A stretch of 64,000 bases of DNA. Source: a virus. Below the pieces are notes generated by a model. The model ran no database searches. It had not been told where the DNA came from and saw only the letters and a list, made by a program, of their open reading frames with translations. Made by a program: the position numbers and the translations under genes. The DNA lies in the UHGV virus genome UHGV-1362809, one strand, 5' to 3'. Shown in pieces: positions 49,982 to 53,399 of the stretch; the stretch's first letter is position 1, and each line of letters opens with the position of its first letter.

Positions 49982-51379
49982 CTAAGATAAATCTTTATAG
50001 GAGTTCCACCAAGTACCCTTTTGTTTGTCGTATTCATTATTGTATTTTGCATACTGCTCGTATCTCTGCTTACGATCCAAAGGTTTGTAAGCGTTCTTAC
50101 GAGCTTGTGCAATAATATCCCATACTCGCCTACAAGTAGCGGACGCCATTTTATAACGAGGTGATTCCCCATTTTTACCACGTCTTAATCCTGGAAATAA
50201 CTCATACGTCATCAAGGACCTTAAACAACCAAGCGACTGGGAAAGACCGTCTATGAACACTCTTATCACAGGCTGTCTTTTACCTGCATAAGGGGTACAA
50301 ACACGGTTTGCCAACTGATAGAAAAACGGACTTCCTACGGGTTGGGGGTTTGCCGACATCGGTGTTTGGATATAAATACAACTTGGTGCTCGGATATCTA
50401 TACCTTCCTTGACCATACTGCGTACCGCTACAATTACACGATGAATCCCTTGGTCTGCTTTATCAAGAATATCTTTACGATTACATCCCGAATAAAACCC
50501 TGCTACGAAGTTTCTCCAATCAATGGACTCACCATTTAAGAGTGTACCTTTACGAGCCAACTTTTTAGCTTTTTTCCTAATCATTTCAACCAGTAGATTC
50601 ATGTGTTTTTTATGGTCGGTAGGAATCAAAATACACTTATGTCCTGCATTTATATCTCTAAATACCTGATTAACAATTAGTTTGTTGCGCTCTGCACTGG
50701 AATATAACCATTTCATAGCATATACCCAGTTTCCAGGACCACTTCCCTTGTACTTAGTTGTACACACCCCTGTTTCTGTAATATCCACAATAGGAACCAT
50801 ACCTATTGCACTTGATTTAGCCACAATGGGACCTACAATTTCCTTAATAAGACAATCTCTGCCATCTTTTCTTAAAGGAGTCGCTGATAGTCCCAAACGA
50901 TATTTCATCACCAACTTATTGACAAACTTAGCAAATGAAACTGCAGCTGCTCCGTGGACTTCATCTAAAATTAGAAAAGAGTATCTACCATTTATATATT
51001 TTTTGATACGTTTGTCGCCACTCTCTCTAATAAATTTTTGGTATGTAACAAGGGCTACCTGTAGATTCTTCATCTCCTTAACGTCCTTTACTACCTTGAC
51101 AATCGGATGACCAAGTTTTTTCTCAATTTTTGGAACATTAGTCATCGACATAAAGGTCTTGTAAAAGTTGTTAAGAAACTCTTCCTGTTTTGCAATTACA
51201 ATGGTCTTTACCCCAATTTTGCAACAACAAAAAACAGACATCACTGTATTATGAGAAATTAATCCATTAGCATAATAGTCGTGATACTTAGGGACGGTTA
51301 GATCAAAAACAGGAGACAAGAAATCATTAAAAATAATACTGCTAACCTTAGATTCTGTTTTATTTAGTTTGACTAACAT
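49982..51379 (-). CDS. split-intein C-half (44 aa) fused to the C-terminal part of a DEAH-box SF2 helicase
   Basis: MLVKLNKTESKVSSIIFNDFLSPVFDLTVPKYHDYYANGLISHN then +1 Thr completing Walker A (GK|T). Motif II LILDEVH, motif III GLSATP. Confidence 0.65.
   Translation of the reverse strand: MLVKLNKTESKVSSIIFNDFLSPVFDLTVPKYHDYYANGLISHNTVMSVFCCCKIGVKTIVIAKQEEFLNNFYKTFMSMTNVPKIEKKLGHPIVKVVKDVKEMKNLQVALVTYQKFIRESGDKRIKKYINGRYSFLILDEVHGAAAVSFAKFVNKLVMKYRLGLSATPLRKDGRDCLIKEIVGPIVAKSSAIGMVPIVDITETGVCTTKYKGSGPGNWVYAMKWLYSSAERNKLIVNQVFRDINAGHKCILIPTDHKKHMNLLVEMIRKKAKKLARKGTLLNGESIDWRNFVAGFYSGCNRKDILDKADQGIHRVIVAVRSMVKEGIDIRAPSCIYIQTPMSANPQPVGSPFFYQLANRVCTPYAGKRQPVIRVFIDGLSQSLGCLRSLMTYELFPGLRRGKNGESPRYKMASATCRRVWDIIAQARKNAYKPLDRKQRYEQYAKYNNEYDKQKGTWWNSYKDLS
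51248..51379 (-). mobile_element. IntC half of the split intein in the helicase gene
   Basis: Block F/G VFDLTV..YHDYYANGLISHN. Confidence 0.6.
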
Positions 51380-52416
51380 TTTCTTTCCCTTAATTTATTT
51401 ATAGCCTTTACTATACTATTTACACAATGGGGTCTGTTATAGTTCCAATCATATTCCCATATATAAAATACATTATAACCCAATTTTTTTAGCTGCTGTT
51501 CTCGTAGCTTGGTATTTTTATTAAGCATATAGGCAGTTTTAGTAGAAGTAAAACAACATCTTTTTCTAGGACTAAAAAGTTTCAAGTTTCCATGAAAATG
51601 GTCGCCATAAAATTCTAATACAATACCATACTTTTTATTAAATCCATCTACAAACAAATTATCTATTTGATATTCAGGAATAAACTTAAGCCTTGTCTTT
51701 TTGGATATTAAATTAATAAAATCTAAACCCATAAAGGAGGCTTTTCCTACTCTATCACACACCACGCACTTTTGAATATCTTTATGTATAAAGTACTGCT
51801 GTATAACATATTTATCTGTACCGCACCTTTTACATTTTAAATGTACTTTGTCTAAAAATCCTGTATACTCTTTTCCAAATACCTTAAAATTGGCATTTCT
51901 TTCTATTGCCTCCTTGAAAGCCTTTTTATTTAGTAGCACAACTGCTTTATTCCTTTGCACAGCTGCGTTACGCTTGTTGCATATACATCCATAAGTAAGG
52001 TGTTTATACCAAGAAGTAATTTTCCAACATTTACATTTTTTACAGTACACAGCTATAGGGGCATCTATACCAACATAATCCGATATATGCGAGTAATCAT
52101 ACCTACTACCATGTTTTTGTCTAGCCTTCTTTAATAAATCCTTAAGATTATTTTTTATATAAGCATGCGCTGGACTATTGTCCCTTCTACACAAGGGACA
52201 CACAAACAGACCATTTCTATCGCCTTCTAATAAATGACAAGGAAGTACTCTATAGTCTACATTATGTACTGTACAAGTAACAATTACAGGAGTAAATTCG
52301 TCTACATACTCAACCTTATCAAATGATAATTTTCGTCTATAAAGACTTTTACATTTCTTTATTAAAAGGGCAGTATTCATTTTATTCCAACAGGATTTCC
52401 AAGCAAGGTAAAACAC
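51373..52416 (-). CDS. free-standing Vsr-like homing endonuclease inserted between the helicase halves
   Basis: Multiple Cys/His fingers. C-terminal IVLEFYGDHFHGN resembles the Vsr FVDGCFWHG motif. Overlaps both flanking ORFs (coupled). Confidence 0.55.
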   Translation of the reverse strand: MFYLAWKSCWNKMNTALLIKKCKSLYRRKLSFDKVEYVDEFTPVIVTCTVHNVDYRVLPCHLLEGDRNGLFVCPLCRRDNSPAHAYIKNNLKDLLKKARQKHGSRYDYSHISDYVGIDAPIAVYCKKCKCWKITSWYKHLTYGCICNKRNAAVQRNKAVVLLNKKAFKEAIERNANFKVFGKEYTGFLDKVHLKCKRCGTDKYVIQQYFIHKDIQKCVVCDRVGKASFMGLDFINLISKKTRLKFIPEYQIDNLFVDGFNKKYGIVLEFYGDHFHGNLKLFSPRKRCCFTSTKTAYMLNKNTKLREQQLKKLGYNVFYIWEYDWNYNRPHCVNSIVKAINKLRERKC

Positions 52417-53399
52417 TTTTGTAAAATGGGTTCTAATTCTTTATTAGCTATACTAACACTATCCTTATCTAGAAATAGTATTTTGTACACACCCATAACT
52501 ACCGATAAATCATAAAAATTATCTGGAAGTATATAGTGTGAATTATGTTCTAACTCATCAGCTATTTTACTGCATACATCAAAGTTAGCTACTGGAATTT
52601 CTGGTATAGACTGGGTTGATAAACACAAGGAATCATTAGTTGTTATGTCTTTTAACTGCTTCCATTCTCCATTGTTTACCCACATTCTGTGCTCTGGTGT
52701 ACCTTCTACTGTAAAACCATCTTCTGTGACAATCTTAACAGTTTTAGATTTAGACCTGAACAAATGAGATACTTTATTAACACCTTCCTTACCAAATACC
52801 TGTATATTATCTACAGGTACAGTAATATCTTCTGGTATATTTCCTACTACGTCACCAATTTTACGAATTTTATTATTAGCAACAATAAGAGTATCGTAAA
52901 CCTGACACTTCCCGCTACGGGGCTGAGCATTAATCAAACCAAATTTATACTTTAAATAATCCTTAGTAATAGTCACTTGGTCTGCAGTGGGAAACCCATT
53001 TACCTTTTCACCATGTCTTAAAGTACCAGTAAACTTGATTGGATAATCAAACTTATTCTCTGGTCTAACGTCCTTTACTTTGGATAGGTCAATACCAAAC
53101 AACCTTTTGATTTTAAAGGCATTTCCAACAGGAACATATACATATTGTACGCCTTTGACCTTTTTTACACCCCAAGTTCTTAGTTTGGTAATAAATCCCT
53201 CACAACCTTGGGCACAAACAGAACAAGGTCTATCGTGGAAATATTCACATTTAGAACATATTGCGTCATCAAACTGCAACACTTCATAGTTTTGCTTTAA
53301 GACATTAGGGTCAACGTCTTTTTTTGGTATGTACAACTTATCTTTAATAACGGGAACTGGTTTCATTTTTGAATCACATATTATCAATAGGACGGTCAA
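52377..53399 (-). CDS. helicase N-terminal extein (Zn finger, Walker A up to Lys) fused to a 176-aa split-intein N-half ending in a stop
   Basis: ...LINAQPRSGK then CQVYDTLIVANNKIRKIGD (Hint block A). Possible LAGLIDADG remnant LFLDKDSVSIANKELEPIL at the C-terminus. Confidence 0.6.
   Translation of the reverse strand: MTVLLIICDSKMKPVPVIKDKLYIPKKDVDPNVLKQNYEVLQFDDAICSKCEYFHDRPCSVCAQGCEGFITKLRTWGVKKVKGVQYVYVPVGNAFKIKRLFGIDLSKVKDVRPENKFDYPIKFTGTLRHGEKVNGFPTADQVTITKDYLKYKFGLINAQPRSGKCQVYDTLIVANNKIRKIGDVVGNIPEDITVPVDNIQVFGKEGVNKVSHLFRSKSKTVKIVTEDGFTVEGTPEHRMWVNNGEWKQLKDITTNDSLCLSTQSIPEIPVANFDVCSKIADELEHNSHYILPDNFYDLSVVMGVYKILFLDKDSVSIANKELEPILQKCFTLLGNPVGIK
52380..52907 (-). mobile_element. IntN half of the split intein in the helicase gene
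   Basis: Cys1 is residue 165, inserted inside the P-loop between GK and T. Confidence 0.55.

Follow-up and report, generated by a model that had tools for sequence, protein, structure and literature searches.

Can a helicase gene that is interrupted within its nucleotide-binding motif still give rise to one complete helicase? The question is raised by the minus strand of positions 49982-53399 in a stretch of 64,000 nt (hereafter the window) from UHGV virus genome UHGV-1362809, where three open reading frames (ORFs) follow each other in the same direction. The locus lies on a contig of 237,192 bp in ENA assembly ERZ27229744, which is derived from a metagenome, and belongs to an uncultured phage. 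An earlier note, made from the letters alone, had read it as a DEAH helicase gene fractured by a split intein in the Walker A motif, with a Vsr-like homing endonuclease gene between the intein halves. We consider it very probable that the helicase gene is indeed fractured by a trans-splicing split intein, which is itself broken by a homing-endonuclease gene, and that the insert is a composite selfish element of 1660 nt. The layout as such is the known fractured-gene layout of Dassa et al. 2009 (PMC2677866), as the earlier note had recognized. The three ORFs are:

52377-53399, minus strand: ORF A, 340 aa from TTG 53399; 329 aa from the probable start ATG 53366
51373-52416, minus strand: ORF B, 347 aa from GTG 52416; 335 aa from the probable start ATG 52380
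49982-51379, minus strand: ORF C, 465 aa

The ATG starts of ORF A (53366) and ORF B (52380) were given by the gene caller on the ERZ27229744 contig, and that of ORF A also matches the homologues. Since the upstream ORF ends at 53374, the ATG start of ORF A fits, whereas the TTG start does not. The ATG of ORF B overlaps the TGA stop of ORF A by 4 nt (ATGA). The ATG of ORF C overlaps the TAG stop of ORF B by 7 nt (ATGTTAG), and a purine-rich AAGGGAAAG is located upstream of it.

The strongest evidence comes from the helicase itself. Deletion of positions 51248-52907 in silico yielded a reading frame of 1725 nt, the product of which (585 aa from TTG, 574 aa from ATG) regains the RSGKTV motif with the Walker A sequence GKT. 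Over its whole length, this spliced product could be aligned with helicases of Dickeya phage JA29 (E 8e-86) and Rhizobium phage RHEph12 that have no intein, and the N-terminal helicase part (N-extein) alone matched the N-terminus of the JA29 helicase with E 1e-18. A protein database search with ORF A recovered P0004, an uninterrupted helicase of 574 aa whose residues 1-153 are 100% identical to the N-extein. P0004 is encoded on a Logan contig of SRR25448194 (L005), and the L005 gene and the spliced coding sequence, both of 1725 nt, differ by 26 mismatches, no indel, and a single amino-acid change. The flanks of the L005 gene are 94.7-97.7% identical to the window, and according to blastn exactly positions 51248-52907 are missing. 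This indel-free match identifies both halves as one gene and fixes the intein boundaries to the nucleotide. The collinearity with the L005 gene and the end-to-end alignment to the JA29 and RHEph12 proteins are therefore the basis for treating the halves as one gene. The three-ORF layout is not due to chance, as the spliced frame is collinear, without indels, with an uninterrupted gene from an independent metagenome. With these boundaries, the locus is divided as follows:

52908-53366, minus strand: N-extein (N-terminal helicase part, 153 aa), from the identity with P0004 and the JA29 alignment
52380-52907, minus strand: N-terminal intein half (IntN), 176 codons, stop at 52377-52379, from Pfam Intein_splicing and the allelic alignment
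52380-52607, minus strand: extra conserved, predicted helical tail of IntN, residues ~101-176, common to four allelic IntN
51373-52380, minus strand: free-standing endonuclease gene, 335 aa, from family consensus, fold, and selection
51376-51738, minus strand: nuclease domain of the endonuclease, residues ~215-335, Vsr/EDxHD-like
51248-51379, minus strand: C-terminal intein half (IntC), 44 codons, from Pfam Intein_splicing and the allelic alignment
49982-51247, minus strand: C-extein (C-terminal helicase part, 421 aa and stop), from ResIII, PHROG 16, and collinearity with P0004
51248-52907, minus strand: whole inserted element (IntN, endonuclease gene, and IntC), 1660 nt, absent from the L005 helicase gene

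The junction in ORF A reads ...AQPRSGK/CQVYDTLIV... and that in ORF C ...ANGLISHN/TVMSV..., so that the insert separates the Lys from the Thr of the helicase Walker A motif. The N-extein contains a CxxC...CxxC...C cluster and terminates in the first half of Walker A, while the C-extein begins with Thr+1 (TVMSV), which completes GK/T. ORF C matched Pfam ResIII (E 7e-10) and PHROG 16 'DNA helicase' (E 7e-22). Its motif II is LDEVHG, and both XPB/Rad25 chains in the PDB and NCBIfam models matched the helicase far below family cut-offs. Judged by these matches, the protein is a putative superfamily 2 (SF2) helicase of the XPB/Rad25-like DEVH type and only a distant relative of solved or named families. 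The gene is of a DNA-repair type and looks essential. Most of what the earlier note had proposed for this part of the locus was borne out: the two helicase halves are not unrelated proteins but parts of one gene, whose product equals P0004 bar one residue, and the intein sits in Walker A, with an IntN of 176 aa, an IntC of 44 aa, and a restored GK/T, according to both the junction reading and the empty L005 allele. The 'DEAH' label has to be replaced by DEVH (DExH). ORF B overlaps both neighbours as had been proposed, but the overlap with ORF A amounts to 4 nt with the probable ATG and not to 40 nt.

The intein halves were recognized by Pfam Intein_splicing, with residues 172-304 of ORF A covering positions 2-96 (E 6e-8, just under the gathering score) and residues 11-44 of ORF C covering positions 122-155 (E 3e-4); the scores were 33 and 21 bits at a gathering threshold of 35.8. 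IntN starts with Cys1 in block A (CQVYDTLI) and has GTPEH in block B (T70-P-E-H73), whereas IntC carries block F (VFDLTV) and block G (ANGLISHN, with H43-N44), followed by T+1. Although no more than 34-46% identical, the four allelic split inteins all keep Cys1, TPEH, HN, and Thr+1. From these motifs, we assign the intein to class 1, with a predicted complete set of HINT splicing residues.

ORF B, located between the intein halves, matched PHROG 681 'endonuclease' with E 4e-11. An exhaustive search returned 6650 relatives (E ≤ 1e-10 for 1429), and 54 sequences drawn from the 6650 matches form the family alignment on which the AlphaFold2 model is based. Residues 1 to ~210 comprise three repeats of the pattern ...HGxKYDYS...CxxHGxFxQ..HLxGxGCPxC, a treble-clef-like zinc module of the DUF723/DUF4379 kind. 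The C-terminal family motif is VDG..(9)..EFxGDxWHGN...TxxRE..LGYxVxxIWExDW, which ORF B carries as EFYGDHFHG. In the alignment, H263 is invariant, and D245, E256, D260, and E309 occur in ≥90% of the sequences. When the C-terminal 135 aa were used as query, REase_MTES_1575 (E 5e-6) and RAP (E 5e-5), both restriction-endonuclease-like folds, matched the last 40 residues of ORF B below cut-offs.

The AlphaFold2 model of ORF B reached a mean predicted local distance difference test score (pLDDT) of 88.8, with 92-98 over the C-terminal domain (residues ~220-330). Foldseek searches against the PDB returned the catalytic domain of I-Bth0305I (3r3p) as the top match (target template modelling score 0.68, probability 1.00), followed by RAP-domain proteins, E. 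coli Vsr (1vsr, 1cw0), and 3hrl (probability 0.99-1.00). Based on the model, the C-terminal domain is predicted to be a Vsr-type variant of the PD-(D/E)xK fold. In an ungapped alignment to what we take to be the Vsr sequence, D245 corresponds to D51, E256 to the position of F62, and H263 to H69. The numbering of that Vsr sequence agrees with PMC3239194 and PMC2677866, and an invariant Glu at the Vsr F62 position has been described for the homing family (Dassa et al., PMC2677866). The N-terminal Glu of the EDxHD motif was not assignable in ORF B. The label 'Vsr-like' is supported by fold and motif and denotes a branch with zinc modules, not NUMODs. Thus, the Cys/His fingers and the Vsr-like nuclease similarity that the earlier note had seen in the middle ORF were recovered, the former as three zinc modules in the 54-sequence alignment and the latter by the AlphaFold2/Foldseek fold and the motif, with weak sequence profiles. 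The profile searches that it had proposed for the three ORFs gave Intein_splicing for ORFs A and C and ResIII for ORF C, but the intein scores stayed below gathering and the nuclease families of ORF B below cut-offs.

The insertion site was found in several allelic states. It is empty in L005, whose helicase gene is 98.5% identical to the occupied allele and reads CAGCCCCGTAGTGGAAAA/ACAGTGATGTCTGTTTTTTG at this point, and also in L009, which encodes P0006 with a 67% identical N-extein. In L006, encoding P0005, the site is occupied by a split intein whose IntN has 175 aa; its halves are 65 nt apart, with no endonuclease gene between them. The nearest homologues of the endonuclease, P0007 (19 contigs) and P0008, are represented by the loci L010-L013; L010 (PPRSGK/CQVAGT...) and L013 (KPRTGK/CQVAGT...) contain the split intein at the same GK/T, with an IntC ORF of the form ...SHN/TVM... 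and a ~40%-identical endonuclease gene between the halves. Altogether, three other phage lineages share the split intein at GK/T, two with the endonuclease gene and one without. By sequence, the nearest endonuclease homologues thus sit between the same split-intein halves in the same helicase family, pointing to a stable partnership. Among the four split alleles, identities were 30-57% for the exteins, 34-46% for IntN, and 39-49% for the endonucleases. This similar divergence of extein, intein, and endonuclease makes the composite look old and largely co-diverging; nevertheless, it is present in one and absent from the other of two genomes that are 98.5% identical in the helicase gene.

The three codons preceding the insertion all differ silently between L005 (AGT GGA AAA) and the window (AGC GGG AAG), whereas the remainder of the helicase gene is ~1.3% different and the next downstream difference is 230 nt away. 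Such codon changes would be expected from co-conversion over a short tract or from a change of the target site. At the empty site, positions 4733-4754 of L005 also form a perfect 8-bp inverted repeat, AAAAACAG(N6)CTGTTTTT, whose left arm is bisected by the insertion point; the repeat is not present in L009 and may be due to chance.

The three ORFs recur in two independent samples, L007 (ERZ15610567) and L008 (ERR10754064), where 3385 nt contain 48 substitutions and not a single indel. The ratio of non-synonymous to synonymous substitution rates (dN/dS) was 0.042 for the endonuclease gene (11 synonymous and 2 non-synonymous changes; p 7e-7), 0.10 for IntN (versus L007), 0.041 for the C-extein, and 0 for the N-extein. 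Thus, the endonuclease gene is as constrained as the helicase. Every part of the locus is under purifying selection, and the locus is maintained and not decaying.

For a fractured gene of this kind, the three ORFs would be transcribed together and their translation coupled through the ATGA and ATGTTAG overlaps. The chains helicase-N-IntN and IntC-helicase-C would associate via the intein halves and, by means of Cys1, TxxH in block B, the Asn at the end of IntC, and Thr+1, would be trans-spliced into a helicase of 574 aa whose GKT P-loop is intact. The product of the middle gene would be a site-specific DNA endonuclease, with three zinc modules that bind DNA and a Vsr/EDxHD-like domain for catalysis. 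It would most likely cut helicase alleles that lack either the element or the endonuclease gene, and in the repair that follows, with the occupied allele as template, the element would be copied into them (homing).

Several observations weigh against this interpretation. The candidate cleavage targets, the empty helicase site and the endonuclease-free intein, are not separable on present data, and the similar divergences of the parts fit long vertical co-inheritance with occasional loss equally well as frequent homing. ORF B had no sequence match to any PDB chain, I-Bth0305I and Vsr included, whether searched as a single sequence or as the 54-sequence profile. The Foldseek E-value was only 2.7e-3 for the whole multi-domain model, and the last acidic residue (Vsr Asp97, I-Bth0305I Asp222) was not placeable in ORF B. 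Finally, characterised split inteins have a far shorter IntN than the 176 aa found here.

A rival reading is that the middle gene does not, or does not any longer, encode a homing endonuclease for this locus. Its nuclease might instead be retained to cut the genomes of competing phages (marker exclusion), for general DNA processing, or for some other task, while the intein would still splice in trans. The strong purifying selection (dN/dS 0.04) and the ~60% divergence in place speak for long retention and not for a cycle of gain, decay, and loss; L006 retains the split intein without the endonuclease gene; and several further free-standing nuclease genes adjoin replication genes in the window. 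We nevertheless regard such a role as improbable, because three divergent lineages have the gene in precisely this place, between IntN and IntC, as predicted for homing together with the intein, because the element is missing from a 98.5%-identical genome, and because the top fold match of the gene product is a proven homing endonuclease.

The atypical IntN with its 75-aa tail and the Pfam scores below the gathering threshold (33 and 21 versus 35.8 bits) could be taken to mean that the intein does not splice. The helicase would then be a pseudogene, or its halves would form a non-covalent complex like the intein-less NrdA halves of phage Aeh1. This is very unlikely, since the break lies inside the GK/T P-loop, which is unable to form from two chains ~220 intein residues apart, the splicing residues are all kept in four alleles of 34-46% identity, and purifying selection acts strongly on the two extein halves, in which the samples show no indels. 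An assembly artefact, or recoding by frameshift or translational bypass to one contiguous intein-containing protein, which the metagenomic origin of the assembly might suggest, can practically be dismissed, as the same three-ORF structure recurs in identical frames in at least three independent samples and assemblers as well as in divergent lineages, the 1-kb ORF in between shows conservation and selection of its own, and the insert of 1660 nt is not a multiple of 3 and is far longer than known bypassed regions, which span tens of bases (PMC2677866). Pseudogene, assembly artefact, and translational bypass were thus rejected on the grounds of selection, the lack of indels, and the repeated occurrence across samples and lineages.

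Returning to the proposed trans-splicing intein broken by an endonuclease gene, we asked what the extra length of IntN represents. The earlier note had overlooked this length, as well as the probable ATG starts and a second split intein in NrdD (see below). IntN comprises 176 aa here and 175-183 aa in the three allelic inteins, and all four have a conserved tail of ~75 aa, the ends of which coincide in the alignment. The AlphaFold2 model of IntN, calculated from a two-sequence input, had an overall pLDDT of 59.9, with 73-90 for the tail, in the order helix, strand, helix, strand. An alignment of ORF A with intein-less proteins, which had paired intein with extein, was excluded from modelling. 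Foldseek with the poor IntN model gave only weak matches to the Npu and Ssp DnaE inteins. The tail resembles the start of a LAGLIDADG domain (e.g., IPEFVFTNRSAAILLINSLLENDGLTINLYSKEAEKQVQILLTNLNLIS in L010), and the predicted order of its helices and strands would fit a LAGLIDADG half-domain, for which IntN residues ~125-176 come into question. In a database of five sequences, a profile of the four tails matched the LAGLIDADG_3 regions of two window proteins, the terminase intein and ORF 62221-63972 (both described below), with E 0.003 and 0.05. By hhalign, the comparison of the tail with LAGLIDADG gave P 0.002 and a probability of only 14%, and a Pfam search of the tail returned no LAGLIDADG match. 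A direct comparison of IntN with the intein of Vibrio phage GR7B found similarity confined to the splicing blocks. We tentatively propose, as a plausible but somewhat doubtful reading, that the ~75-aa tail is the first half of a decayed LAGLIDADG domain.

The arrangement resembles the fractured genes that Dassa et al. 2009 described from Global Ocean Sampling metagenomes for gp41, NrdA, NrdJ, IMPDH, DnaE, ligase, and terminase (PMC2677866). Common features are the order N-extein-IntN, free-standing endonuclease gene, and IntC-C-extein on the same strand, the phage origin, a Vsr-like endonuclease, and a split in the region where inteins hold the endonuclease domain. Furthermore, the endonuclease gene runs with its 3' end into the start of IntC, by 7 nt in the present case and by 6-69 bp in theirs (PMC2677866), and an endonuclease-free allele exists (L006 here, gp41-7 there). 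In contrast to that set, the host gene encodes an XPB-like DEVH helicase, outside their eight enzyme types, and the Walker A GK/T insertion site is new for the fractured-gene layout. IntN has 176 aa instead of 88-105 aa (PMC2677866), and the endonuclease carries three zinc modules where theirs have NUMOD motifs. In the 2009 set, a 27-51-nt spacer with a hairpin or late-promoter element is frequently, though not strictly definingly, found upstream of the endonuclease gene (PMC2677866). Here, the gene is preceded by neither a non-coding spacer nor a hairpin, and the ATGA overlap stands in its place. The stages of the 2009 gene-breaking model, in which a mini-intein is invaded, were proposed mostly from fragmentary reads (PMC2677866), whereas the present locus is complete within a 237-kb contig and has a matched empty-site allele.

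I-Bth0305I (PDB 3r3p) is the prototype of the EDxHD Vsr-like homing endonucleases, which were first predicted from fractured genes (PMC3239194, PMC2677866), and its EDxHD residues are E170, D196, N208, H213, and D222 (Taylor et al. 2011, PMC3239194). Like I-Bth0305I, its best fold match, the ORF B product is predicted to consist of two parts, a DNA-binding region at the N-terminus and the catalytic domain at the C-terminus. It differs in lacking significant sequence similarity and a placed final EDxHD acidic residue, in having zinc modules instead of NUMOD/helix-turn-helix motifs, and in being intein-associated and not intron-encoded. The helicase of Vibrio phage vB_VcorM_GR7B is a homologous gene with the same insertion point (PPRSGK/C...HN/TVM), and its splicing blocks are 31-42% identical to those of the window intein. 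Unlike the latter, the GR7B intein is contiguous (443 aa): its frame is not broken by a stop codon, it encloses a domain that is apparently of the LAGLIDADG type, and a separate endonuclease gene is absent. The respective entry, GR7B_00070 (MT366760; L002 2366-5239), is annotated as 'hypothetical protein' and represents a 957-aa SF2 helicase with an unannotated Walker A intein. Pseudomonas jumbo phage MIJ3 has a split PolB with an intervening HNH endonuclease gene (PMC6892783). It shares with our locus the fractured replication gene, the split intein, the ORF for an endonuclease between the halves, and the jumbo phage genome, and differs in the host gene (PolB) and the endonuclease type (HNH), and the inteins are unrelated. 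Vsr-like endonucleases were likewise treated only in the split context by a 2025 survey on inteins of actinophages. New in the present case are the host gene, the insertion site, the tight ORF overlaps, the zinc-module branch of the endonuclease, the long IntN, and the full set of allelic states including a near-identical empty site.

By megablast, no close DNA relative of the window was found among cultured phages, and portal and helicase are <40% identical to those of Rhizobium RHph-like, Vibrio GR7B-like, and Erwinia/Dickeya jumbo phages. A scan of IMG/VR with the C-terminal helicase part alone and a word-indexed protein search with IntN alone returned no match. Among the relatives that were compared, the C-terminal helicase half of L006 carries a second, contiguous intein at motif II (DE/CH; IVDE/CFEGST...VCGN/CHSG). 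The DnaB-like helicases of L006 and L010 contain LAGLIDADG inteins, and the window DnaB (43873-45240, 455 aa) is without one. The intein-bearing helicase entries of these relatives are L006 7431-9755 and 10436-13222 and L010 7386-9047.

Potential expression signals were also inspected. Folding at the starts of the endonuclease gene and IntC, as expected for hairpins or sequestered ribosome-binding sites, was no better than for shuffled sequences (z-scores 0.4), and sigma-70-like promoters and terminators at the locus did not exceed shuffle expectation. A motif resembling the T4 late promoter, TATAAATA or GGATAAATA, lies 20-30 nt upstream of every IntC-ORF start, namely those of helicase C (window 51396-51403, minus strand), NrdD C (39431-39439, minus strand), and L006 helicase C (about 7397-7405). 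At the helicase, TATAAATA is located 20 nt before the ATG of ORF C and not before the endonuclease gene. Neither motif is enriched in the window (TATAAATA, 15 found versus 12.3 expected; GGATAAATA, 1 versus 1.5), and therefore we claim no function for them.

The window is crowded with selfish elements. A second split intein, at positions 37715-40293 on the minus strand, interrupts the anaerobic ribonucleotide reductase NrdD:

39472-40293, minus strand: NrdD N ORF, ATP-cone and NrdD N-terminus (174 aa), followed by an IntN of 99 aa
39475-39771, minus strand: NrdD IntN, junction ...DVLSGY/CLSPDTL
37715-39415, minus strand: NrdD C ORF, IntC followed by NrdD (Pfam NRDD, E 2e-147)
39308-39415, minus strand: NrdD IntC, 36 aa, junction ...GLFVHN/CAGWSL

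The NrdD halves are separated by a 56-nt spacer with no endonuclease gene, which matches the gp41-7-type endonuclease-free state of the 2009 model. The large terminase (28221-31751, minus strand, 1176 aa) has a contiguous intein with LAGLIDADG_3; Pfam Intein_splicing covers residues 326-768 and LAGLIDADG_3 residues 606-662, and the probable junctions are ...ALRGN/CIPGNVL... and ...NILVHN/TRTS. The ORF at 62221-63972 (minus strand, 583 aa), with LAGLIDADG_3 at residues 177-255 and a match to phrog_9666, may be a further intein-bearing gene or a free-standing LAGLIDADG gene.

Three DUF7487/phrog_3339 'homing endonuclease' genes and one truncated paralogue are located at 14058-15416, 48718-49962, 56053-57243, and 57230-58000 (minus strand). 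One DUF7487 gene directly follows the helicase stop and ends in ...FDCDFYLPKFDLYIEYNGSWTHGG, also a Vsr-like pattern, and the remaining genes of this type adjoin DNA polymerase A. Window positions 48760-49828 and 55936-57833 are missing from L005, which is otherwise 95-98% identical, and positions 57244-58063 are missing from L007. The DUF7487-type genes thus vary in presence among close relatives. An N6/N4 DNA methyltransferase (46564-47360, minus strand) is a single ORF in L005 (266 aa) and L007 (249 aa), whereas in the window it consists of two ORFs, a 96-aa call and then 154 aa covering only Pfam positions 97-221. The gene may have been interrupted, frameshifted, or locally replaced in the window. 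L007 also has the adjacent 306-aa ORF (47357-48277), most of which is absent from L005.

The locus does not change the current view of how fractured-gene elements work. It adds natural split inteins with a Thr+1 junction in the P-loop (four variants of 34-46% identity), which may be of use in protein ligation, and the allele series provides the exact DNA for asking what the endonuclease of a fractured gene cuts, a point on which the 2009 paper is silent. If the proposed origin of the IntN tail were true, the free-standing Vsr-like gene would have invaded a full-length intein and displaced the resident endonuclease, and the composite would have remained a stable unit ever since, over a divergence of the helicase to ~35% identity. 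The element would then also provide a family of inteins that are split by nature, join at Thr+1, and bear an additional folded module on IntN, and fractured genes would be long-lived elements, not short-lived intermediates. The partnership between intein and endonuclease, in any case, can outlast deep divergence.

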